A stretch of 24,037 bases of DNA. It comes from a virus. The stretch lies in UHGV virus genome UHGV-0103738; one strand, given 5' to 3'. The translations under genes and the position numbers were made by a program. Positions 1,079 to 12,810 of the stretch are shown here, one piece after another. Positions within the stretch are counted from its first letter, which is position 1, and each line of letters opens with the position of its first letter. The notes beneath the pieces are model-generated. The model was not told where the DNA came from, did not search any database, and saw nothing but the letters and a program-made list of their open reading frames with translations.

Positions 1079-3091
1079 ATGCTTAAATTTCGCCGCGAAC
1101 TTAACGGTTACGGTGGAGTTATTAACGAAGGGCATAACGATCAATACGAATTTGAAATTGCTTTCTCCAGTGAACAGCCTTATCAGCGCCAATTCTGGGA
1201 TGAGCAAAATCAAGAAATGGTGGTATTAGATGAAATTCTGGTACATACACCGGAAGCGGTTGATCTGTCTCGTCTGAATAATAACGCTCCGTTGCTGTTT
1301 AATCATAATTTCGATAATCATTTAGGTGTCGTTTGTAACGCTCGAATCGATGCGGATAAAGTAGGCCGTGCGACCGTTAGATTCTCTAAGCATGGCACTT
1401 TGGCTAATGATATTCGTAATAAAGTCATTGAAGGTACGATGGAAAAAATTTCTGTCGGTTATGACATTAAAGAATATCACATCGATTATGCCAAAGGACA
1501 ATTGATTGTTACTAAGTTTGTTCCTTTCGAATTAAGTTTTGTTACGGTCCCGGCGGACGATTCGGTCGGTTTAAATCGCTCTCTAAATACTATCACAGTT
1601 AATTTGGAGGCTAAACGCGATATGACTAAAGAACAAATTGAAGAAATCAAAGAAGAACAAGAATCCGCTCAGGTTGAAGAAACTCCGGTAGAAGAAAATA
1701 AAGAACCGGAAGTTGAAGAAACTCAAGAGCGCCAAGTTGAAGAGAATAAAGAAGATGAAAATCTCGAAGACGGAAAAGACGCTGAACATCCTGAAAGTGT
1801 TGATGATGATAGTTCAACTGTTCGGGAAACAGAAGAAGTAAAAGAAGAACGTGAAGCTGCTCCGGTTGAAGAAGAAAAAACCGAGGAAGTGGCTGAACGT
1901 TCCGAAGAAGACGAATTAGAAATTCGCGAAATTGCACGCGAGTTAAATATTAACGAAGACGATGAAGAATTTAAACGCGCATTGGCAAATAAAGAAATTA
2001 CGCCGGAAGCATTCCGCACTAAGGCACTAAATAACATTACCAATGCTCAACGTAATAACGAACAAATTAATAAGGAACAAATCATGGAAAAAACTTTCGA
2101 TCTTAATAACGTAATCCGCTCCCTGGTAGATGGCGACGTGCTCGGCGCTAACGAAGCTGAATATTCCGCAATGGCTGCTACTGCAACTATGCAGCGTGGT
2201 CGTGCTGCTCGTGGTGGCTCTGTATTCGTTCCGGCTGCTGCTATGCGTGCTGCTGCTGATGGCAACACCAAAGCTAATCTGGTTGCTATCACTGACGAAA
2301 AACTGATGACTGAATCCTACATCGAAATGCTGTTGCCTCAGAGTGTTTTAGGCCGCCTCGGGGTGACTGTTTATAGTGGCTTGACTTCTCCGACCGCTAT
2401 TCCAAAAATGACTAAATCCAGCGTTGACGCTTTCGGATTCGTTGACGAAAATGGCGCTGCCCCCGAGTCACATGCGGAATTTTCGAACGTGAAACTGTCT
2501 CCGAAAACTTTTGCTGGTGGCAACCCGATCAGCCGTCAGTCGCTGAAAACCGTTCCGGGCATCGCTACCCTGATCACCGATCACATTAACAAATCTGTTC
2601 GGATCAAACTGGAACAACTGATTCTGTCTGATAAAGAAAATGCTCGTGGTCCGGCTGGTCTGGTTAAGCAACTGGTAGACGCTAGCCGCGTTACCAAGAA
2701 AGCTGCTTTCTCTTATAAAGACTTCCTGAAAGAAATTGCAGCACTGACTGACGCTGGCGTTCCTGCTCAGGCGATCAAGTTTGCGATGAGCGGTGCAACT
2801 GCTGCTGAACTGGAATCTACCCTGAAAGATAACGGCGTTTCCGGTTATATCATCGAAAACGGCAAACTGGCTGGTTACGAAGTAGTTACTTCTGGCGTTA
2901 TTCCGGCAGACCACATCGTTCTGGGTGACTTCTCCGGTATTACTATCGGTGAGTGGGGCGGTCTGGAACTGGATATGGATCTAACTACATACCGTGATCG
3001 TGGTGCGGTAGTGCCTCGTATCTTTGTAGATTTGGACTACGTTGTAGCACAGCCGGAAGCTCTGAAAGTTCTTCACATCTCCGCTGAATGA
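1079..3091 (+). CDS. Prohead protease / acidic scaffold-like linker / major capsid protein encoded in one reading frame (670 aa)
   Basis: Shine-Dalgarno AAAGGTGA at 1067-1074, ATG at 1079. N-terminal ~170 aa carry HK97-family prohead protease-like motifs (ISVGY, ELSFVTVPADD). A Glu/Lys-rich low-complexity segment spans ~1620-2080. The C-terminal ~335 codons switch to codons typical of highly expressed genes (ctg, cgt, ggt, gct, ttc), as expected for a major capsid protein. Stop is TGA at 3089-3091. Confidence 0.8.
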   Translation: MLKFRRELNGYGGVINEGHNDQYEFEIAFSSEQPYQRQFWDEQNQEMVVLDEILVHTPEAVDLSRLNNNAPLLFNHNFDNHLGVVCNARIDADKVGRATVRFSKHGTLANDIRNKVIEGTMEKISVGYDIKEYHIDYAKGQLIVTKFVPFELSFVTVPADDSVGLNRSLNTITVNLEAKRDMTKEQIEEIKEEQESAQVEETPVEENKEPEVEETQERQVEENKEDENLEDGKDAEHPESVDDDSSTVRETEEVKEEREAAPVEEEKTEEVAERSEEDELEIREIARELNINEDDEEFKRALANKEITPEAFRTKALNNITNAQRNNEQINKEQIMEKTFDLNNVIRSLVDGDVLGANEAEYSAMAATATMQRGRAARGGSVFVPAAAMRAAADGNTKANLVAITDEKLMTESYIEMLLPQSVLGRLGVTVYSGLTSPTAIPKMTKSSVDAFGFVDENGAAPESHAEFSNVKLSPKTFAGGNPISRQSLKTVPGIATLITDHINKSVRIKLEQLILSDKENARGPAGLVKQLVDASRVTKKAAFSYKDFLKEIAALTDAGVPAQAIKFAMSGATAAELESTLKDNGVSGYIIENGKLAGYEVVTSGVIPADHIVLGDFSGITIGEWGGLELDMDLTTYRDRGAVVPRIFVDLDYVVAQPEALKVLHISAE

Positions 3092-3217
3092 ACTCCTGTA
3101 GAACCATCTGAACCTTCCCCCGATTTGGGGGAAGAAAATCTGATTCCTGAACCGGAAGAAGAATCCCAGACGGTTAAGGCGAAAGCCACAGCTAAAAAAC
3201 AGCGTAAAACTAAAGAA
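3092..3217 (+). other. Putative in-frame TGA read-through extension of the capsid protein (42 codons, TAA at 3218-3220)
   Basis: The frame stays open for 42 codons after the TGA, encoding TPVEPSEPSPDLGEENLIPEPEEESQTVKAKATAKKQRKTKE. It ends 5 nt before a terminator hairpin. A parallel arrangement follows the tail tube gene. Confidence 0.45.
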
Positions 3218-3225
3218 TAATAATT

Positions 3226-3252
3226 AGCCCTGCCTAACGGTGGGGCTTTTTT
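3226..3252 (+). terminator. Rho-independent terminator after the capsid gene
   Basis: Stem AGCCCTGCC / GGTGGGGCT (9 bp, two G-U pairs), loop TAAC, followed by a T-run. Near-identical to the hairpin at 9094-9121. Confidence 0.75.
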
Positions 3253-3282
3253 GTATGTAAATACTCCATAAAGGGGGTAACT

Positions 3283-3988: not shown

Positions 3989-4822
3989 ATGAATATTACA
4001 CAAGATAACTTAGATATTTTCACGGGGTCACATGTTGAAGTGTCGATCTCTAACCAGATAGACAATCAGGTCGACTTTTTCGATCCTAGCTTTAGTTCCA
4101 TCGAGAACGTTGCAGCATTTCCTACGCTAACCGAATCCACAGAGATAGAAACTCTGGAAGAGTACGATCAGGACGCTACGGGGAAACTTGCTGGTTATCG
4201 TAGACTGGAACCGACAACACTCACGTTAAACCGTGTTCTGGATGACGAACATCAAGCAATGTTGATGAAAGCGGTAGAGGATAAAACACCTTTACGCTTC
4301 CGTATGTTCTATGTTGTGAACTCTGGCTATAGTGCTGCTAACACTGGTTACTATGTCATCTATGATGCTTACGTCACATCACACAAAACCCGTGGTAGTG
4401 ATAACAAAGCTGTAACACTGGAATTTAAACTTGAACCAGATGGCGGGATTTTGGATCGCGGTATTGCAACGGAGGGTCGTCTTCTCCGTCGCGGGGATTA
4501 TGGCGTAGGTGCAGGTGTACATCCATTCACAGGTCCGATTGATAGTGATGCTTTAGCCGGAAACCGTTTCGTAACTTACAAGGGAACTGCTAGCGGTAAT
4601 CCATATTCAGCCGACACATCATTAATTCACCTTCAAGCTAATGAGCATGGCGCATGGCAATTAACCTGTAATACTTCTGGCGCACCACGTTTACGCGTCC
4701 GAAATATTCAGGAAAACGGTCGCTCTGAATGGATCAAGGTATATTCCACCAATGAGAAACCGACACCTAGCGAAATTGGCGCAGTGGCTAAGACTGACCG
4801 GATCGATTTCGGCGAATACTAA
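3989..4822 (+). CDS. Tail-tube-like paralogue with a C-terminal domain carrying a tail-fibre motif (277 aa)
   Basis: SD AAGGGGTAA. N-terminal ~150 aa align by eye with the 157-aa tail tube protein (DIFTG..., AAFPTLTESTEIETLEEY vs AGFPETGIERGTVEVKSF, LRFRMFYVV vs IQIKVEYYV). The C-terminus has KVYSTNEKPTPSEIGAVAKTD, matching KMYHEGDKPTPGEIGAYTKAE in the fibre gene. Confidence 0.6.
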   Translation: MNITQDNLDIFTGSHVEVSISNQIDNQVDFFDPSFSSIENVAAFPTLTESTEIETLEEYDQDATGKLAGYRRLEPTTLTLNRVLDDEHQAMLMKAVEDKTPLRFRMFYVVNSGYSAANTGYYVIYDAYVTSHKTRGSDNKAVTLEFKLEPDGGILDRGIATEGRLLRRGDYGVGAGVHPFTGPIDSDALAGNRFVTYKGTASGNPYSADTSLIHLQANEHGAWQLTCNTSGAPRLRVRNIQENGRSEWIKVYSTNEKPTPSEIGAVAKTDRIDFGEY

Positions 4823-4901: not shown

Positions 4902-7900
4902 ATGCAGTCGATCCAATTTAAACGCACACAAACGGCTGGTAAAAAACCAACGCCGGAACAATTATCACAGGGCGAGATCGCCTTACAACTGGCGGACCAT
5001 GTGATTTACACCAAAGATAAAAATAATAACGTAGTCCAAATTAGTGTTTCTCCAGAAAAACACGCTGAACTGAATACGAAAGTAGACACCAACAAGGTCA
5101 ACACAGATAAAGTCATTTCAGCAAATAAAACCGAAGCCGCTAATAATCTGGCTACGGCTAAAGCTGAACTTAATCAGACTATCACTTCTACCCGTGATAC
5201 TCTCAATGCTTCAATCACTGCTGGCGATACCGCAGCCAACAAGCGAATTGATGCTTTGACTACCACAGTAGGTAACAATAAAACCGAAGCGGCTAACGCT
5301 CTGGCGGCTGCTAAGACTGAACTGAATCAGACTATTACTTCAACCCGCGATACTATCAACGCGACAATTAACAAGAACAAGACAGATATTAATGCGCGAG
5401 TTGATCAGACGAATACCAACGTTACCAACTTAACGAATACTGTCGCAGCAAATAAATCAGCAATAGAAAAGACGGTAGCGGATAATAAGAAAGATGCGGA
5501 CACGAAGATCACCAATCTTACTAGTACGGTCTCTGCGAATAAGACAGCCATTGAAAGAACTGTTGCAAATAACAAGGCCAGTGCCGATGCCGCAATTGCC
5601 GCAGCTAACCAGCGAATTGATTCTATTGAAGGTAGTGCCGATGCTGCTTACATCAAGAAGAATACCAATACTAAGCATGGTGGGTATCTGTTAAGCAAGA
5701 CAGCTAACTATTTGGAAGACCAGACAGCGAGAGATCTTAACTACTTTGGTGCTTTCCGTACCAATGGTCAAGATGGACTCATGGATCTAACTCTTAATGT
5801 TCCTCATTCTGCCGGTAAAGCGCACGGTCGCGGATTTACTTTCCGTTATGCGTCTGGTGGATCTCGTGTTGAAACCTATGGTTTTGATAGAGAAGGACAG
5901 AAGAACTTTAGCTATAAGATGTATCACGAAGGTGATAAGCCGACTCCTGGCGAGATTGGCGCATACACCAAAGCCGAAGTTGATAAGATGTTTGTTAAAA
6001 ACGTCGTTATGTCTGTTCCCAATTCTAGCGAAAACGTATCTGCATATTTCAAATTGGCAACCGCAACAATTCCACAAAACGGGCGTAGTGTGTTTTTCCG
6101 TATTCATGGTGGTAATGGTTACAACGTTACGGCATATGATCAGGTTGACGTAGTAGAAATTCTTCTGCGTAGTGGTAACGATAGACCTAAAGGTCTTAAC
6201 GTAATTGCATACCGTAGAAATACAAACAAAGATTTTGAGGTATTTGCTGTCAATACTTCCGGTGATAACTATGATATCTACGTGAAATATCAGCGTTATA
6301 CCGATAACGTTATTGTCGAATATGGGAAATCTGTTTATGTAAGTTTGACGGTTTATGATACGCCGGAAGCCACGTTAATTAAACCTTCCGTTGGTGTTAT
6401 CGGTGGTCGCAACGTAACTCTTTTTAATACTGAAAATAAACGTGGTGTGTTAAGTTTTGATGATAACACACAAAACAGCTATGACATTGTTCACTTGAGT
6501 AACGATAAAGGTACTGGACGGAAATATATTCGTAAATTCCGTAGCAACTATAACGAAATGGTTTGGCATGAAACCGTTCAGGGTGCTGTATATCGTCTTG
6601 CTACCGGTGCTACAGATTCTACAGAAGTTATTAGAATTGATTCTAATAGTGCAATACCGGGTAATTATAAAGGATATGTAATTACTGGTAAAATGGAATT
6701 GCACGGTAGTGGTAATGCGATGACTTTACATCGCCAGACTGGTCAAGCTGCATATATGGCGTGGTGGGATCGTCGTGATGGTAAAAACCAACGTAGTGGT
6801 TATATCGGTCATGCGGATGGTACTAGTGATGGTTTTGTGTGGCGTAATGATGTTGGTGCTAACTCATTTGATTTGGAAGGTAGTGGACAAGTAAATTTGA
6901 CTACAGGAAAAACAAAAATTGTATATACCAATGGTCAATATTATTCCGCTAACGCTGATGCATTCCGTATGATTTACGGTAAGTATGGTGCATTCTGGCG
7001 AAATGATGGTGGTAAAGTTTATCTGTTGTCTACTGCCGAAAATGATAGATTTGGTGGTTGGAACGGAAACCGACCATTCATTTACGATTTGACTAACGGT
7101 AAAGTTACTTTAGGTGGTGATGGTAACGAAGGCGCATTAGTTCTCGAAAGAGATAGCCGTGCTGCTCGATTTGCTGGCGATACATATATCGAGAAAGGGT
7201 TTTTAACCTTCTCTGCTGGGAGAAGCGGATCTCGTGATTATATTCGATTTAATCATTGGGGTGATAGTAATAATGCCCGTGATAACGTTTTGTACCTAGA
7301 AGATAGTCAAGGTAGACATTTTAGCACAGAGCGTGCGATGGGTACTGGTGCTCTTAAAGCAAACTTCTTAGGCGATCTTGAAGTTGGTGGTAAGTTTACT
7401 TGGGGTAAAAATACAGCTACATCCAGCTTTAATATTCGTGCTTGGGGTAACGATAGTCGTAAACAAGTATTAGAATGTGGTGATGAAAGTGGTTGGCATT
7501 GGTATACCCAACGTCCGGGCGGTCCGGGTACTACGGCAATTGAGTTTGCCATCAACGGTACTGTTAAGCCTCAAGCAATTCACACTGGCGGTAATATCAC
7601 GCTTAACGGTGCTGATATTGAATTTCGTCGCACTGGTAATAAGCATATCTGGTTTAGAGATCCAACTGGATTAGAACTAGGTTTGATGTATTCTGATGAT
7701 GCTGGTGTTATTCGCTTCCGTGGTCAGAAACAAGCCCAGACGTGGAAACTTGCGGATAAGATGATTCATCTTGAATCTGGTAGCGTCGGCGGATCTGATA
7801 AAGGTTTGATTCGTGGTAACGTTTCTGGTGGTAGCTGGTCTAGTTGGCGCGATCGTGCATCCGGCTTGCAAGTTGATTGCCCTCAATCAACCGATTCCGC

Positions 7901-8432
7901 TCATAACATCTGGAAAGCTACTCATTGGGGTAAATATCACATTGCAGCAATGGGTGTACACGTTCCTAGCGGTACTATCGGTAACGCTCTTGTTCGTCTG
8001 CATGTTAACGATACTAACTTTGACTTTAACGCTGCTGGTGACTTTACCGCAGGTCGTAACGGTAGCTTTAACGATGTTTACATTCGCTCTGACTCCCGTT
8101 TGAAGATTAACAAGGAAGAATTACAGGACGGTGCATTAGAGAAAGTAAACTCACTGAAAGTCTACACCTACGATAAAGTTAAATCTCTTTCCGATGACAC
8201 GGTGATTAAACGCGAAGTAGGTATTATTGCTCAGGATCTGGAAAAAGTATTGCCGGAAGCAGTAGGTATTCAATCCACCGAAGATCCAGAAAATCCAGAA
8301 GCAATCAAGACTATTTCTAACTCTGCTGTCAATGCTTTAATCATCAAGGCTATGCAGGAAATGGACGCCAAATATAAAGCACAGATCGAAGCATTACAGA
8401 AAGAAATTGCCGAACTGAAAGCAACTAAATAA
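4902..8432 (+). CDS. Side (L-shaped type) tail fibre with a C-terminal intramolecular chaperone / self-cleaving domain (1176 aa)
   Basis: SD GAGGTGA. N-terminal fibre-type motifs, a repeat-rich N/T/A shaft with 51-aa repeats, and a long Gly-rich beta region. The C-terminal ~114 aa begin RSDSRLKINKEE and end in a coiled coil, as in peptidase S74-type chaperone domains of phage fibres and endosialidases (Ser/Lys spacing S1063/K1068). Confidence 0.8.
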   Translation: MQSIQFKRTQTAGKKPTPEQLSQGEIALQLADHVIYTKDKNNNVVQISVSPEKHAELNTKVDTNKVNTDKVISANKTEAANNLATAKAELNQTITSTRDTLNASITAGDTAANKRIDALTTTVGNNKTEAANALAAAKTELNQTITSTRDTINATINKNKTDINARVDQTNTNVTNLTNTVAANKSAIEKTVADNKKDADTKITNLTSTVSANKTAIERTVANNKASADAAIAAANQRIDSIEGSADAAYIKKNTNTKHGGYLLSKTANYLEDQTARDLNYFGAFRTNGQDGLMDLTLNVPHSAGKAHGRGFTFRYASGGSRVETYGFDREGQKNFSYKMYHEGDKPTPGEIGAYTKAEVDKMFVKNVVMSVPNSSENVSAYFKLATATIPQNGRSVFFRIHGGNGYNVTAYDQVDVVEILLRSGNDRPKGLNVIAYRRNTNKDFEVFAVNTSGDNYDIYVKYQRYTDNVIVEYGKSVYVSLTVYDTPEATLIKPSVGVIGGRNVTLFNTENKRGVLSFDDNTQNSYDIVHLSNDKGTGRKYIRKFRSNYNEMVWHETVQGAVYRLATGATDSTEVIRIDSNSAIPGNYKGYVITGKMELHGSGNAMTLHRQTGQAAYMAWWDRRDGKNQRSGYIGHADGTSDGFVWRNDVGANSFDLEGSGQVNLTTGKTKIVYTNGQYYSANADAFRMIYGKYGAFWRNDGGKVYLLSTAENDRFGGWNGNRPFIYDLTNGKVTLGGDGNEGALVLERDSRAARFAGDTYIEKGFLTFSAGRSGSRDYIRFNHWGDSNNARDNVLYLEDSQGRHFSTERAMGTGALKANFLGDLEVGGKFTWGKNTATSSFNIRAWGNDSRKQVLECGDESGWHWYTQRPGGPGTTAIEFAINGTVKPQAIHTGGNITLNGADIEFRRTGNKHIWFRDPTGLELGLMYSDDAGVIRFRGQKQAQTWKLADKMIHLESGSVGGSDKGLIRGNVSGGSWSSWRDRASGLQVDCPQSTDSAHNIWKATHWGKYHIAAMGVHVPSGTIGNALVRLHVNDTNFDFNAAGDFTAGRNGSFNDVYIRSDSRLKINKEELQDGALEKVNSLKVYTYDKVKSLSDDTVIKREVGIIAQDLEKVLPEAVGIQSTEDPENPEAIKTISNSAVNALIIKAMQEMDAKYKAQIEALQKEIAELKATK
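5124..5429 (+). repeat. Two tandem 153-nt (51-codon) repeat units inside the fibre shaft
   Basis: AATAAAACCGAAGC(C/G)GCTAA...CTGAA(C/T)T(T/G)AATCAGACTAT(C/T)ACTTC recurs at 5124 and 5277. Protein units are NKTEAANNLATAKAELNQTITSTRDT... and NKTEAANALAAAKTELNQTITSTRDT... Confidence 0.7.
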
Positions 8433-8488
8433 TAAAAGTCGGGGGACTAGTTCCCCCGTAATAACAATTTTAATTAAGGGGTAATTCT

Positions 8489-8962
8489 ATGTCTCAGCAA
8501 TTCAAAGATATTTTTACTGGTGGTCTGGTAAGTCTGTTCTATCACGCCGATACCACTAACACCGACCTTGCCGATGAAGCATACGAAGAAATTAAAGAGT
8601 GTGCTGGTTTTCCTGAAACTGGTATCGAGCGCGGTACTGTAGAAGTTAAATCCTTCTCTTCTCAGTATAACCGTAAACTGGTAGGTAAACTGAACGTTCC
8701 TGATCTGACTCTGACCGTTAACTACATTCCTGGTGATGCGGTACATGAGAAGCTCATAAAGGCTGCCGAAGACGGTACGCGTATTCAAATCAAAGTTGAA
8801 TACTATGTTGACGCCGGAAAACAGACTGGTATTCGCACTGCTTTCAACGGCTTTATTTCTAAAGTTGCTATGAACGGTGGCGATGAAGAAGTGGTAACGA
8901 AAGAGTTTACCTTTGCTGTTGATGGTGCTCCGCTGAAACAGCAAATCTTCACTGCCGGATGA
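8489..8962 (+). CDS. Major tail tube protein (157 aa)
   Basis: SD AAGGGGTAA. Strongly biased highly-expressed codon usage. Lies upstream of the chaperone and tape-measure genes and is followed by a strong terminator. Stop is TGA at 8960-8962. Confidence 0.7.
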   Translation: MSQQFKDIFTGGLVSLFYHADTTNTDLADEAYEEIKECAGFPETGIERGTVEVKSFSSQYNRKLVGKLNVPDLTLTVNYIPGDAVHEKLIKAAEDGTRIQIKVEYYVDAGKQTGIRTAFNGFISKVAMNGGDEEVVTKEFTFAVDGAPLKQQIFTAG

Positions 8963-9085
8963 ACTAACGAAGAACTTCCTTTACCAGAACCGGAACCACT
9001 GCCGGAACATGAAGCGGTGGTGATTCCAGAAGTAGAAGAAGTTACGGCGAAAGCCACAGCAAAACGAGGCCGCAAGGCTAAGAAT
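8963..9085 (+). other. Putative in-frame TGA read-through extension of the tail tube protein (41 codons, TAA at 9086-9088)
   Basis: Open in frame after the TGA, encoding TNEELPLPEPEPLPEHEAVVIPEVEEVTAKATAKRGRKAKN. Same TGA-ACT context and same Pro/Glu-linker plus basic-tail architecture as the capsid extension. Ends 5 nt before the terminator. Confidence 0.45.
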
Positions 9086-9093
9086 TAATTTTA

Positions 9094-9121
9094 AGCCCTG
9101 CCTTAATGGTGGGGCTTTTTT
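9094..9121 (+). terminator. Rho-independent terminator after the tail tube gene
   Basis: Stem AGCCCTGCC / GGTGGGGCT, loop TTAAT, then a T-run. Same stem as the terminator at 3226-3252. Confidence 0.75.
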
Positions 9122-9136
9122 ATTGGAGTAATCAAA

Positions 9137-9643
9137 ATGGCAAATGTCGTTAAAGTTCCTGGCTGGATCGGGTCATCTGCTGTATCGGTGACGGGTAAGC
9201 GATGGATGAAAGAAGCATTAACAGCTTTAAAAGTTCCGGCTCCGCGTAATATGTCGGCAATGGCTGGTCGTGGTATGGATACGGTTGTAGCTACTGCATC
9301 GTGGTCTACTTCATTGGGTAATAACTGGGGTGTAACTGCTTCAAACTATCCTGTTTCCGGTATGCAAAGCAAAGGATCTATGGAGAACCCCGAAAACGTG
9401 GGCGTAGGGCGTCTGGTTGGCGTTATCGTTGGTCAATTCAATGGCGGTACTCCTACTATGGCTGTATATCTCCAGAACGGTAGAGCGGGGAATATAACCG
9501 TTAATTTGGGTGGTGCTGCTGTCACTGTTCCTTATAACAGTATGCAAAGTGGTTTTCATTACTATTGGTTAAGCAATCCTCCGGCTGCTTTCCTTACCAA
9601 CATTAAGAAGACTGGCACTAAGCAGACTTTGAAAATCTCTTAA
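9137..9643 (+). CDS. Hypothetical tail-associated protein (168 aa, Gly/Ser/Thr/Asn-rich)
   Basis: ORF with upstream GGAG, located between the tube gene and the chaperone genes. Composition suggests a beta-rich structural protein. No specific motif recognised. Confidence 0.45.
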   Translation: MANVVKVPGWIGSSAVSVTGKRWMKEALTALKVPAPRNMSAMAGRGMDTVVATASWSTSLGNNWGVTASNYPVSGMQSKGSMENPENVGVGRLVGVIVGQFNGGTPTMAVYLQNGRAGNITVNLGGAAVTVPYNSMQSGFHYYWLSNPPAAFLTNIKKTGTKQTLKIS

Positions 9644-9685
9644 ATTCTAAATAAACATATCGAATTAACTTAAGAGGAAACAAGA

Positions 9686-9994
9686 ATGAATATTAATGAA
9701 ATGCTGAAAGCTCTTTCTCCGAAACGTGAATCTCTGACCATCGGCGGATTCACGTTCTATGCTCGCCCTATGTCAGTAAAAGAATTTAACGAACATGTTT
9801 TCAATACTGATAAAGAAGACCGTGATGAACGTTCGATTCTTCGTTGTATTGAAGATGAAGACGGTAAACCGGTATTTGAATCTATGGAACAAGTTAAGGC
9901 ACTGTATACTAACGTCCGCAGTGAATTAATCGGTTTGGTTGCTCAAGCGTCATTGATGCAAGATCCGGCAGTAATTGAAAACGAGGTAAAGTAA
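9686..9994 (+). CDS. Tail assembly chaperone (lambda gpG-like by position, 102 aa)
   Basis: SD AGAGGAAA. Small acidic protein immediately upstream of the tape measure gene, with a second ORF in the -1 frame overlapping its 3' end. Confidence 0.55.
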   Translation: MNINEMLKALSPKRESLTIGGFTFYARPMSVKEFNEHVFNTDKEDRDERSILRCIEDEDGKPVFESMEQVKALYTNVRSELIGLVAQASLMQDPAVIENEVK

Positions 9995-10023
9995 ACCCGC
10001 TTCTGAATTTCTATTTTCGGCAA

Positions 10024-10374
10024 ATGATGCGATCGGGGCTTAGTAAAGATGAAATGGATAATATGCCAATCACTCTGTTTTGGAAATTATACATTTTCGA
10101 CACCTACTTAGAACCACAAAGCCCCGCGTTTCATGATATGCAGAATGCGATGTTGCAATATTCCATGTATATGACGTCGCAAGGAATGACTCGTGAAACT
10201 GCAAAGAAACTCAAGCCTAGCCAATTCCAATTAATTAGAGAAGAAAAACTCTTTAAAACTAAAGAAGAACTGGAAGAACTTGCACGCAAGAAAGAAGAAG
10301 AACGTAAAGCTGCAACATTGAGCATGTTCGATCCATCTTTGCTTGAGAAACTCAGAAGCGCACAAACGGGGTAA
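10024..10374 (+). CDS. Tail assembly chaperone -1 frame segment (gpT-like; frame open from 9979)
   Basis: ORF in the -1 frame relative to 9686..9994. No SD upstream of ATG 10024, and the frame is open back to 9979, overlapping the last five codons of the upstream gene. This fits expression as a frameshift fusion. Confidence 0.5.
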   Translation: MMRSGLSKDEMDNMPITLFWKLYIFDTYLEPQSPAFHDMQNAMLQYSMYMTSQGMTRETAKKLKPSQFQLIREEKLFKTKEELEELARKKEEERKAATLSMFDPSLLEKLRSAQTG

Positions 10375-10377
10375 TTT

Positions 10378-12810
10378 ATGACAAAACATATAGTAACAAT
10401 AGAAGGGGATAATAAAGGTCTAAGGAGAAGTACCAGTGAAGCCGCCGACCTTCTCGATAGTTTGTCTGAAAAGGCAAGTGGTATTGATTTTGGTGGTGGC
10501 TTGTCTGGTTTGACTGGATCTCTTCGTGGGATCGCTGGCTCTGCTGGTTTGGCTGCTGGTGGTATCGGCTTAGTTGCGACCGCAGTGGTTGCAGCCGCTA
10601 AAGCTGGTGCGGAATACGTTAAACAGTATTCAGAAGTATCTAAGGCGACCGGACTCTCGATTGAATCCCTTCAAAGACTAGAAAAGGAATTTTCTGGTAC
10701 TGGCCTAACAGTTGAAAAATTCGGTGATATCAACAAAGACACCTTAGATAAGATGGGTGATGCATGGGCTAACGGTGGTGGTATTGCTGATGACTTAGAA
10801 TCGGTTGGTCTTAAGTTAGAAAACTATGCTCACTTCATGACAGATCCGCAAGGTGGTATGAAAGCGGCGATCCAAGTGTTCTATGACATGAAGAAAGCCG
10901 GAAAATCAATGGCTGAAATCAAGTTCATGATGGAATCTTTAGCCAGTGATTCAAGCCATATGACCAGCCAGCTTGAGAAATATAATAGTGCTCAAGAGGC
11001 GATGATCGCTATTCAGAATCAATCTGTTAACGTCACCGAAGAAAACGCTAAAAAATATGATAAATTTTCTCAGAATATTAATAAGCTGGAAAATAACCTG
11101 AAAGGCGCAGCCATGACCATTACTGGTCCTTTGGTTGATAGCTTAAACTGGTTATTTGAATGGTTTAATATTGATTGGGAAAAGAGTTCTCTATTCAGGG
11201 CATTAGATCGACTGAATAAAGAAGGCAAGACCGCAACTGGTGGTATTCTTAACGCCAACCATAAAGACGCTCAAAAGATTATTGACAAGTACAATAAAGA
11301 AAAGCGTTGGAATAATCTAGCAGATTGGGAAAAGGCCGCGATCCGTGGTGCTGGTGTCGATCCTCGTACTGCTGGCTTTGATGTTGAAGGATTTAAGAAA
11401 CGTTTTGGTGGGTCTTATAAAACTTCAAGTGGTGCTCTGATTGTCGTAGATGCAGGTGAACATCTGACACGCAAGGCAGATCCTAACACTGATTTGACTA
11501 TACCAAATAAACCAGTAAGACCAGAATCATTGGGTAAGTCTGGCAACGAGAAGAAAGCCGAGGAAGAAGCCAAAAAGAAAGCGGAAGAGGCAGCTAAAAA
11601 GGCTAAGGAAGCCGCAGAAAAAGCACAGAAAGCACGCGAGGATGCAATCAAGCGACTGAATGCACTTGATGTTAAATTGCAAGGGCAAGTTGCAGCGTCT
11701 ATCACTTCTCAAAATAGCCAGTTGCAAAACAGCTTAAAAGATGTGAACGACGCGTTAGCTCTGGGCTTAATCTCTCAGGAAGACGCAGCCGCGAAACGCC
11801 AGGCGCTAATCGATCAGAATACTGAAAACGTTTATAAAATGATGTTGGGTGCTGATCCGATTGATGCTCTGAATGCTTTAACACAATTGCAACAAATCAG
11901 GGACAACGAGCTAGAAAGCCATAAACGGTTACTTGATGGTAAAGCTATCTCCTACGAAGAATATATGCGTCGTGTGAACGATACCGAGCAAAACTATTCT
12001 CAGATTGAAAATTCTTTACAGGGAATGGATGGTTATAAAACCAATCAATTAACTAGTGGTTATGATTATCAAGACTCAAATAATCCGTTTGCTAAATTTA
12101 ATGCAATCGATAAAGAGAAATCGGATGCTGAACAAGATTATAAGACCGATAAACTCAAGATTGACGGTATTAATGATCCGGCTAAACGGATGGAAGCATT
12201 AGAAAAACTCAATGAAAACCATCAAAAACGGATGGCTGCAATTGAAAAGAAATATGCTGATGCTCGTCAGTCAATAGCTGATGATATGTACGGCGGTTTT
12301 GCTGCTGCAATGACTCTCTTCGGGCAGGAAAACACAAAAGCTATGCAGATGGCTTTCAATGCTCATAAAGCATTCTCAATTGGACAAGCGACGGTGAACA
12401 TGTGGACGGCTGCTACCGATGCATGGAACGATCCGACCAACGTAACCACAGGTCAAAAGATCGCTGCTGCTGCATTGGCTGTTTCTCAGAACATGGGGAA
12501 CATTGCAAACATCAAGTCTACTAATGTTAGCGGTATGGCTCATGATGGTATCGATAACATCCCGCGTGAGGGTACATGGTTGCTTGATAAGGGTGAACGA
12601 GTAGTTGATCAGCGTACTAACGGTGATTTGAAAGACTTCTTATCTGCTCAAAAATCAGGCGGTGGTAACTCTCAGCCGATTGAAGTTAATGCGCCTTTGA
12701 ACATTAACGGCAACGTTAATAGCTCAGACAAGATGGTTATGGATGCTATCAAACGTCACGCTAAGTTAGTTGCTCAGGCGGTAGAAGACGCACAGCGTCG
12801 TAAGATGTAA
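10378..12810 (+). CDS. Tail tape measure protein (810 aa)
   Basis: Position after the chaperone pair. N-terminal Gly-rich hydrophobic segment, long coiled-coil and Lys/Glu/Ala-rich stretches, C-terminal Gly-rich region. Confidence 0.85.
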   Translation: MTKHIVTIEGDNKGLRRSTSEAADLLDSLSEKASGIDFGGGLSGLTGSLRGIAGSAGLAAGGIGLVATAVVAAAKAGAEYVKQYSEVSKATGLSIESLQRLEKEFSGTGLTVEKFGDINKDTLDKMGDAWANGGGIADDLESVGLKLENYAHFMTDPQGGMKAAIQVFYDMKKAGKSMAEIKFMMESLASDSSHMTSQLEKYNSAQEAMIAIQNQSVNVTEENAKKYDKFSQNINKLENNLKGAAMTITGPLVDSLNWLFEWFNIDWEKSSLFRALDRLNKEGKTATGGILNANHKDAQKIIDKYNKEKRWNNLADWEKAAIRGAGVDPRTAGFDVEGFKKRFGGSYKTSSGALIVVDAGEHLTRKADPNTDLTIPNKPVRPESLGKSGNEKKAEEEAKKKAEEAAKKAKEAAEKAQKAREDAIKRLNALDVKLQGQVAASITSQNSQLQNSLKDVNDALALGLISQEDAAAKRQALIDQNTENVYKMMLGADPIDALNALTQLQQIRDNELESHKRLLDGKAISYEEYMRRVNDTEQNYSQIENSLQGMDGYKTNQLTSGYDYQDSNNPFAKFNAIDKEKSDAEQDYKTDKLKIDGINDPAKRMEALEKLNENHQKRMAAIEKKYADARQSIADDMYGGFAAAMTLFGQENTKAMQMAFNAHKAFSIGQATVNMWTAATDAWNDPTNVTTGQKIAAAALAVSQNMGNIANIKSTNVSGMAHDGIDNIPREGTWLLDKGERVVDQRTNGDLKDFLSAQKSGGGNSQPIEVNAPLNINGNVNSSDKMVMDAIKRHAKLVAQAVEDAQRRKM

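Follow-up and report, generated by a model that had tools for sequence, protein, structure and literature searches.

Programmed read-through of stop codons is well established among RNA viruses, with phage Qβ as the coliphage example. In tailed double-stranded DNA (dsDNA) phages, the known cases of minor long capsid and tail proteins all stem, to our knowledge, from ribosomal frameshifting. Capsid and tail proteins are both extended by frameshifting in the Listeria phages PSA, A118, and A500 and in the Lactobacillus phage A2 (PMC5009743), and gp10B of phages T3 and T7 and gp17.1* of SPP1 are further long forms of this origin (PMC5009743; PMC5221750). The read-through site of the Qβ coat gene is the hexanucleotide UGAACU, which allows 3 to 5% read-through in Escherichia coli and gives rise to the A1 protein (PMC13517186; PMC7026636, table 1). 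In eukaryotic viruses, read-through is also stimulated by RNA structures, such as the pseudoknot of Moloney murine leukemia virus (MoMLV) and the extended stem-loops of alphaviruses and Colorado tick fever virus; these structures start at about position +12, with spacers of at least 8 nucleotides (nt) (PMC13517186). A literature search found no description of stop-codon read-through in the structural genes of tailed phages. Here we describe a 24,037-nt stretch of the viral genome UHGV-0103738 (the whole stretch is referred to below as the window), in which the genes for the tail tube protein and the major capsid protein both end in TGA and are followed by homologous in-frame cassettes. The favored reading, which we consider probable, is that these are programmed UGA read-through cassettes that yield minor, C-terminally extended capsid and tube subunits.

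The tube and capsid genes and their cassettes lie on the + strand. The tube gene (positions 8489 to 8959, 157 codons) encodes a λ gpV-like tail tube protein, as judged from PHROG and Pfam profiles and a fold match. Its product matches the major tail protein family phrog_158 with an E value of 7.5e-22 and the Pfam family Phage_TTP_11 (PF16460) with a score of 28.1 bits, slightly below the cut-off of 28.4 bits. In the AlphaFold2 (AF2) model, the core of the protein has predicted local distance difference test (pLDDT) values of 82 to 94, and its best Foldseek matches in the PDB are the λ gpV structures 7t4f and 8k36 (probability, 1.0). The gene is located upstream of the chaperone and tape-measure genes. 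It ends with GGA TGA ACT (TGA-ACT, UGAACU in RNA, at 8960 to 8965), after which the same frame stays open for 41 codons (TNEELPLPEPEPLPEHEAVVIPEVEEVTAKATAKRGRKAKN, 8963 to 9085, with the tip AKATAKRGRKAKN) up to a final TAA at 9086 to 9088. The stem of an intrinsic terminator, detected both by a terminator scan and by folding (9093 to 9121, with a 10-bp stem at 9093 to 9117 and a T-run), begins 4 nt past this TAA. A first-pass annotation made from the sequence alone had pointed out the TGA-ACT context, the 41-codon open frame, the TAA, and the terminator, all of which are confirmed. Leakiness of this context is documented for the identical Qβ hexanucleotide (PMC13517186). TGA is a rare choice in the window: 21 of its 23 genes end in TAA (several in TAA-TAA), none end in TAG, and the two that end in TGA are the tube and capsid genes. 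Many of these stops directly adjoin intrinsic terminators.

The second TGA closes a gene of 670 codons (1079 to 3088) that encodes a fusion of prohead protease, scaffold, and major capsid protein. The Pfam domains Phage_capsid (E = 6.6e-25) and Peptidase_S78 (E = 1.8e-10) are both found within this one open reading frame (ORF), whose product also matches phrog_617 (E = 2.7e-92). The gene end reads GAA TGA ACT (TGA-ACT at 3089 to 3094) and is followed by an extension ORF of 42 codons (3092 to 3217), the double stop TAA TAA (3218 to 3223), and a terminator with a T-run (stem at 3226 to 3247) that is nearly identical to that of the tube gene, the stem sequence GCCCTGCC/GGTGGGGC being common to both. 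The parallel between the two extensions seen in the first pass reflects homology: the capsid cassette (3089 to 3253) is homologous to the tube cassette, the 10-nt spacer included, and the two share the spacer, the core, and the terminator. A short variant of the capsid extension, NNEELPEEIPVVTAKATAKK, is similar to the tube extension. The shared core, GGCGAAAGCCACAGC, encodes AKAT, contains a GGC-GAAA-GCC mini-hairpin of the GNRA type, and occurs in the window in exactly two copies (3178 to 3192 and 9046 to 9060) in equal codon phase, compared with a chance expectation of 0.04. The identity of the two copies and the capsid position had been given correctly before; the tube copy had been placed at 9047 to 9061, one nucleotide off. 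The identical core is better explained by the homology of a duplicated, terminator-including cassette, together with RNA-level constraint, than by selection on the peptide.

For comparison, the gene ends of relatives were drawn from IMG/VR contigs, E. coli genomes, public assemblies, and metagenomes, giving 61 unique cassette-bearing gene ends (22 tube and 39 capsid) and 48 unique extension sequences (18 tube and 30 capsid). Taken alone, a single genome makes a moderate case against chance: open runs of at least 41 codons follow 3 to 5% of the stops in this window and are found in 10 to 14% of composition-preserving shuffles of each extension. The case becomes strong only with the relatives added. 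The stop context is TGA-A (ACT or AAT) in all 61 gene ends. It is TGA-ACT in 22 of the 22 tube gene ends, in which the codon before the stop varies (GGA, TCT, GCT, or GGT), and 39 of the 39 capsid gene ends, which come from the E. coli prophage group, have TGA-A followed by an open extension of 28 to 45 codons. Frame 0 is free of stops in 48 of 48 extensions (18 of 18 in the tube set), and no other frame is open in all 48; frames +1 and +2 carry 1 to 7 stops each in every variant. Extensions of 28, 36, 39, 40, 41, 42, 43, 44, and 45 codons were seen (36, 39, 40, or 41 codons in the unique tube variants), with all length differences being multiples of 3 and at least 6 independent length changes. 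Stop-creating changes make up ∼4.5% of the point mutations possible in the extension, and none was found over ∼85 variable sites. The final stop is TAA in all tube variants. The first-pass annotation had let its proposal depend on whether the frame is conserved in relatives, and in every cassette-bearing relative examined it is open behind TGA-A.

Antisense frames are often open as well (one of them in 15 of the 18 tube variants, in which both other sense frames have at least one stop each). Antisense coding was nevertheless rejected, as some variants have stops in the antisense frames, whereas sense frame 0 has none in any variant. An independent start within the tube extension was considered too, as in-frame GTG codons exist there, and rejected: the frame is conserved in the indel-rich stretch ahead of these GTGs as well, so any translation would have to enter from the tube gene. 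A 198-amino-acid (aa) tube fusion with Trp at the stop position was noticed among database proteins (P0001; positions 41 to 637 of locus L026, a metagenome contig from ENA), but the DNA has TGA at this site and the fusion is an artifact of gene calling with genetic code 4. As it stands, this artifact displays the putative read-through product in a protein database.

A natural control comes from prophages of the same group that have other tube alleles (74% and 58% identity): their tube gene ends with TAA-TAA or TAA-TAT directly at the terminator and has no extension, although the capsid genes of these prophages still have TGA-A and the extension. The tube extension is therefore optional, being missing from closely related prophages with other tube alleles. 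Capsid relatives at ∼42% identity end in TAA and have no cassette. Such absences, as well as the fast amino acid evolution of the extension, would suit the view that TGA is a nonsense mutation fixed in once-longer genes, with a decaying remnant downstream. However, the arrangement persists in 61 unique gene ends, in two genes, and in several recombinant classes, has acquired no stops or frame-shifting indels that would point to decay, and has no allele with a sense codon in place of TGA, which makes a remnant very improbable.

What the first-pass annotation did not mention is a conserved stem-loop located 10 nt past the TGA. When each unique variant was folded from TGA to TAA, this stem-loop, H1, was part of the minimum free energy structure in every case. 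In the tube cassette it spans positions 8973 to 9043 (−23.2 kcal/mol) and also encodes an acidic proline-rich linker; in the capsid cassette it spans 3102 to 3175 (−29.0 kcal/mol). The 5′ arm of H1 begins at nucleotide 14 in every variant class, with Z-scores of −0.9 to −5.8 relative to dinucleotide shuffles. The intervening spacer (ACTAACGAAG, 8963 to 8972 in the tube cassette) has a constant length of 10 nt in all variant classes of both genes, despite the frequent indels farther downstream. The register of the closing stem stays constant across its different sequences (AACTTC/GAAGTT, AACC/GGTT, AACAACC/GGTTGTT, and AATTGCCGGAA/TTCCGGTAGTT), and the last of these has the compensatory variant AATCGCCGGAA/TTCCGGTGATT. 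In an anchored alignment of 29 distinct sequences, 84.5% of the cells of the closing stem are paired, compared to 24 to 47% with the partners slid by 1 to 3 columns; 7 of its 11 pairs show changes on both sides, and the observed covariation score was reached by none of 500 shuffles. The G-U pairs assign the structure to RNA of the + (mRNA-sense) strand. H1, then, is stable, lies a short and constant way 3′ of the stop, and has covariation support, as looked for in stimulatory 3′ structures.

The invariant core starts 2 nt past the 3′ arm of H1. The helix of its GNRA mini-hairpin is 100% paired across the 29 variants, the sole change being from C-G to U-G, and the synonymous sites of the core never vary. 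The native RNA is more stable than 500 synonymous recodings in all four variant classes (P = 0.04, 0.024, 0.004, and <0.002; 0.04 for the tube class), which indicates that selection acts not on the frame alone but also on the RNA. Such selection raises the possibility that the cassette is a structured 3′ untranslated region, acting in the stabilization or processing of the mRNAs for the two virion proteins of highest abundance, and that its open frame is incidental. The strong conserved structure, selected beyond the peptide, and the invariant synonymous sites of the core would be at home in an untranslated region, as would the high ratio of nonsynonymous to synonymous polymorphism (pN/pS) in the extensions, 0.42 to 0.71. 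Moreover, a lone open run of 41 codons is not rare (3 to 14%), and antisense frames are often open, too, because the sense strand is purine-rich. Nevertheless, mRNA stability needs no UGA among UAAs, no Qβ hexanucleotide, and no fixed 10-nt distance from the stop. An incidental frame is also at odds with frame 0 alone being stop-free in all 48 extensions while each of the other sense frames is interrupted at least once in every variant, with length changes by whole codons throughout, and with the TAA or TAA-TAA that closes the frame just ahead of the terminator in every variant. An untranslated role of the cassette is accordingly considered unlikely, and programmed read-through remains the favored interpretation.

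The cassette of ∼165 nt consists of a UGA-A stop, a 10-nt spacer, the stem-loop, the GNRA mini-hairpin, an ORF of ∼40 codons that runs to TAA, and the terminator. By the favored interpretation, the majority of ribosomes would terminate at UGA with the help of release factor 2 (RF2), and a few per cent would insert an amino acid and go on. By analogy with Qβ and given the E. coli host, the inserted residue would probably be Trp, delivered by near-cognate tRNA-Trp. The junctions would read ...QQIFTAG-X-TNEELPLPEPEPLPEHEAVVIPEVEEVTAK and ...VLHISAE-X-TPVEPSEPSPDLGEENLIPEPEEESQTVK, and Trp insertion would give the tryptic junction peptides QQIFTAGWTNEELPLPEPEPLPEHEAVVIPEVEEVTAK and VLHISAEWTPVEPSEPSPDLGEENLIPEPEEESQTVK. 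With UGA in the A site, the stem-loop would sit at the mRNA entry channel of the ribosome, where it would probably raise or set the frequency of read-through; whether it in fact stimulates read-through we regard as an evenly balanced question. A tRNA gene search of the window and of the full prophage copy in locus L025 found none, which argues against a phage-encoded suppressor.

An in-frame UGA with a hairpin ∼10 nt downstream is also the arrangement expected if UGA encodes selenocysteine and the hairpin serves as a selenocysteine insertion sequence (SECIS); the minimal SECIS helix of E. coli fdhF lies 11 nt from its UGA. SelB recognizes a specific apical loop and bulge, but the apical parts of the hairpins described here are unrelated from class to class, with a GAAA tetraloop, a loop of 10 nt, or a forked structure, which argues against recognition by SelB. 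Further, an Rfam search detected no SECIS or other family at the gathering thresholds, the sub-threshold matches being driven by the terminator only. Selenocysteine insertion at these sites is scarcely credible.

Neither the tube extension nor the capsid extension has a match in Pfam. In the AF2 model of the tube read-through product, the extension (residues 159 to 198) has pLDDT values below 50 and is therefore predicted to be disordered. All classes keep the same pattern: an acidic proline-rich stretch is followed by [T/K][A/V]KA[T/P][A/V]K[K/R] and then by a basic tip. The tip comes in at least three nucleotide and peptide versions, namely, KKQRKTKE or KKERKTKAK; KKVGRPPKAK; and KRGRKAKN, KRSRKAKD, or KRGRKPKE. 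The extension would thus form an acidic proline-rich stalk of ∼28 residues with a basic tip of ∼12 residues. Similarity of the PEPEP...VVI linker to the proline-rich spacer of TonB was checked by BLASTP and was not significant. The C terminus of λ gpV runs on into an outward-facing immunoglobulin-like (Ig-like) domain, and the C termini of HK97-fold capsid proteins serve for external display in T7. As the tube extension is attached where λ gpV carries that domain, it is probably external, and both extensions would probably lie on the outside of the virion, each head and tail bearing a few copies. The leading guess for their role, made with low confidence and by analogy with Ig-like decorations, is weak electrostatic adhesion to anionic cell-surface polymers.

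Comparable small basic-tailed units are found at the corresponding position in more distant relatives. In an Edwardsiella tarda prophage (locus L191, positions 2780 to 2860; capsid gene at 840 to 2789), the capsid gene ends with ...CAG GGA TGA-T and has an overlapping ATG (ATGA). This ATG (GGATGA) opens a 21-codon ORF in the −1 frame, MIPTGREEVSVKSGRKPKTDN, which ends at the terminator and whose tip GRKPK matches one variant of the capsid extension in E. coli, ...AKRGRKPKE; either reinitiation or a −1 shift at G_GGA_UGA could bring ribosomes to this ORF. The Edwardsiella tube protein has a constitutive tail, ...VIPEAVAAKEK. In phage DCP80 (locus L001, 3567 to 3660), the capsid stop reads TAA ACC TAA, and a TAATG overlap then starts a 26-codon ORF, MERAISPMSLGAEALDAAPVKKSKSASG, which has an A7 run inside and ends with ...PVKKSKSASG ahead of the terminator. 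This ORF may represent a stand-alone equivalent of the extension peptide. In the Salmonella relatives, both the capsid and the tube proteins end in short basic tails. The recurrence of basic-tailed units in three coding arrangements favors a role for the peptide, although A-rich sequence in front of terminators could contribute to this recurrence.

These observations also bear on the possibility that read-through is real but the peptide irrelevant. In such a case, ribosomes that reach the TAA, 4 to 6 nt from the terminator stem, would mask the terminator and tune downstream transcription by translation-coupled antitermination. The position of the final stop, 4 to 8 nt before the terminator stem in all cases, is what such a device would require, and the weak amino acid constraint is compatible with the need for an open frame only. 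However, cassette-free genes adjoin terminators in the same way (the TAA-TAA tube alleles and the end of the fiber gene, 8430 to 8458), so the proximity of stop and terminator is the default layout and no special device. Terminator masking further leaves unexplained why the acidic-then-basic pattern is kept across three nucleotide solutions (KKQRKTKE, KKVGRPPKAK, and KRGRKAKN) and why small basic-tailed ORFs follow the capsid genes of the Edwardsiella prophage and DCP80. Ribosome passage with a dispensable product therefore appears rather improbable, and read-through for the sake of the extended subunits is retained as the preferred explanation.

Several observations weigh against that explanation. 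The extension shows weak amino acid constraint, with pooled pN/pS values of 0.42 (tube) and 0.71 (capsid), and its variable sites are spread evenly over codon positions, with no third-position bias. High pN/pS is partly expected, as RNA pairing constrains the synonymous sites, yet the selection on the peptide proposed in the first-pass annotation is at best weak and not fully supported by these values, and RNA-level constraints alone could account for much of the conservation seen in the sequence. The sequences have diverged too little overall for the conserved single G of TGA to be significant alone. Because the cassettes are homologous, the shared TGA-ACT arose once and was then copied, and does not count as two independent events. 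The basic tip may in part result from the A-rich sequence that precedes terminators: in two loci of a Hafnia-like prophage group with ∼42% capsid identity (L184 and L187), the stop of the capsid gene is TAA and the in-frame sequence right behind it, EKQKQKRKRKLK, runs through the terminator, its A-rich pre-terminator tract mimicking a basic tail, so that part of the tip signal can arise without coding. No natural fusion with a sense codon at the stop position was found among the relatives, and a protein search with the capsid C terminus plus its extension found no fused homolog. In the literature searched, hairpin-stimulated read-through in bacteria other than that by SECIS was not found. Finally, we infer the occurrence and level of read-through and the identity of the inserted residue from sequence comparisons.

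The window represents the late-gene region of a ∼35-kb temperate siphophage prophage of E. coli. Its genes are arranged in the order portal, protease-scaffold-capsid fusion, fiber, tube, gp38-like adhesin, chaperones, tape measure, tail tip, and large serine recombinase. Among 5,426 complete E. coli genomes, the tube region was matched in 22 and the capsid cassette in 54, with a chromosomal location every time. Lysogens include E. coli H2 (CP028733) and 24AR0357 (CP195351). No capsid relative was present in the species-representative genomes searched, and a scan of these genomes with a 19-mer of the cassette gave 3 chance matches only; being absent from them, the cassette is limited to this prophage group in non-representative E. 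coli strains. A scan of viral contigs with a 14-mer of the core likewise yielded only chance matches (loci L033 onward). A megablast search of the region against 50,697 phage records produced zero matches. The nearest isolated phage is DCP80, which is 40 to 44% identical and whose tube gene has no cassette. The taxonomic assignment of the DCP80 record to Straboviridae appears inconsistent with its siphophage-like tail module.

Some neighboring genes deserve mention. The portal is a single protein of 501 to 503 aa among the relatives, but in RefSeq the prophage of E. coli 24AR0357 (locus L025, 8952 to 10576) has two adjacent portal coding sequences, 8952 to 9839 and 9920 to 10576, a split that could reflect disruption, insertion, or annotation. 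Upstream of the fiber gene, the window encodes a 277-aa protein (3989 to 4819) that is present in all relatives; it has no Pfam match and matches phrog_158 weakly (E = 5.8e-9, residues 10 to 154), so it may be a second tube-like paralog. The tube gene itself is flanked by a T-even-like long tail fiber gene (4902 to 8432, gp37-like) and a gp38-like adhesin gene (9137 to 9643), the latter placed between the tube and tail chaperone genes. In relatives, the fiber carries an intramolecular-chaperone domain. As relatives hold different sets of fibers and adhesins in this slot, it is a mosaic host-range module. Of the two chaperone-like ORFs that follow (9686 to 9994 and 10024 to 10374), the second is in the −1 frame and is open from 9979, giving a 16-nt overlap as for a frameshift of the G/GT type. 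No canonical XXXYYYZ heptamer was found at this overlap, and gene calls for the second ORF differ among relatives (78 to 116 aa).

If confirmed, the cassette would represent an instance of programmed read-through in the structural genes of a tailed dsDNA phage, with the Qβ hexanucleotide and in the host of Qβ, and the covarying 3′ stem-loop would become a testable stimulator of read-through in bacteria. The most original element is the portable cassette of leaky stop, spacer, hairpin, linker, tip, and terminator. An intriguing possibility, put forward tentatively, is that UGAACU, the 10-nt spacer, and the stem-loop form a portable bacterial read-through device, the stem-loop being the first 3′ RNA structure other than a SECIS to set UGA read-through in bacteria; such a device would move between unrelated virion genes by recombination, together with its own linker, tip, stop, and terminator, equipping heads and tails with a few copies of one appendage. 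Being short, modular, and naturally present or absent on one gene family, the cassette is readily testable and could find use in low-copy display on heads and tails. Products of this kind are overlooked by annotation pipelines; PGAP, for example, ends both the tube and the capsid gene at TGA.

Among the described systems, the coat/A1 pair of Qβ offers a close parallel, as it shares with the window the E. coli host, UGA ACU, and the in-frame extension of a capsid protein in a minority of copies, which in the window is predicted. However, Qβ is a single-stranded RNA phage in which the folded A1 extension of ∼200 residues is essential for infectivity, whereas the extensions described here comprise ∼40 residues predicted to be disordered and belong to a dsDNA tailed prophage. 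Here, two genes have one cassette with a conserved 3′ stem-loop; for Qβ, a review lists no determined structure. The eukaryotic-virus structures resemble the stem-loop in being stable, located at a fixed distance, and supported by covarying pairs, with a start at +14 here versus ∼+12 there. Their action, however, has been proven by experiment and involves eukaryotic ribosomes and eRF1, while the role of the hairpin in the window is inferred.

The frameshifting phages PSA, A118, A500, A2, T3, T7, and SPP1 resemble the window in that one structural gene gives, or in the window would give, a major short form and a minor C-terminally extended form, with a 3′ RNA structure or a stop codon as the stimulator. 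In those phages the ribosome shifts by +1 or −1, and the extensions are often folded Ig-like or fibronectin type III domains; the cassettes of the window are read in frame 0, need no slippery site, and encode homologous short copies that are predicted to be disordered. Being in frame and without a shift site, the cassette falls outside the frameshift class. The first-pass annotation called the pair of recoded tails unusual, and paired recoding of capsid and tail genes as such is known from frameshifting (PMC5009743); the use of read-through for this purpose is what is unusual. As in λ gpV, the tube appendage is placed at the C-terminal end of a gpV-like tube domain. The Ig-like domain of gpV is constitutive, folded, and present on every subunit, whereas the appendage described here would be substoichiometric and disordered.

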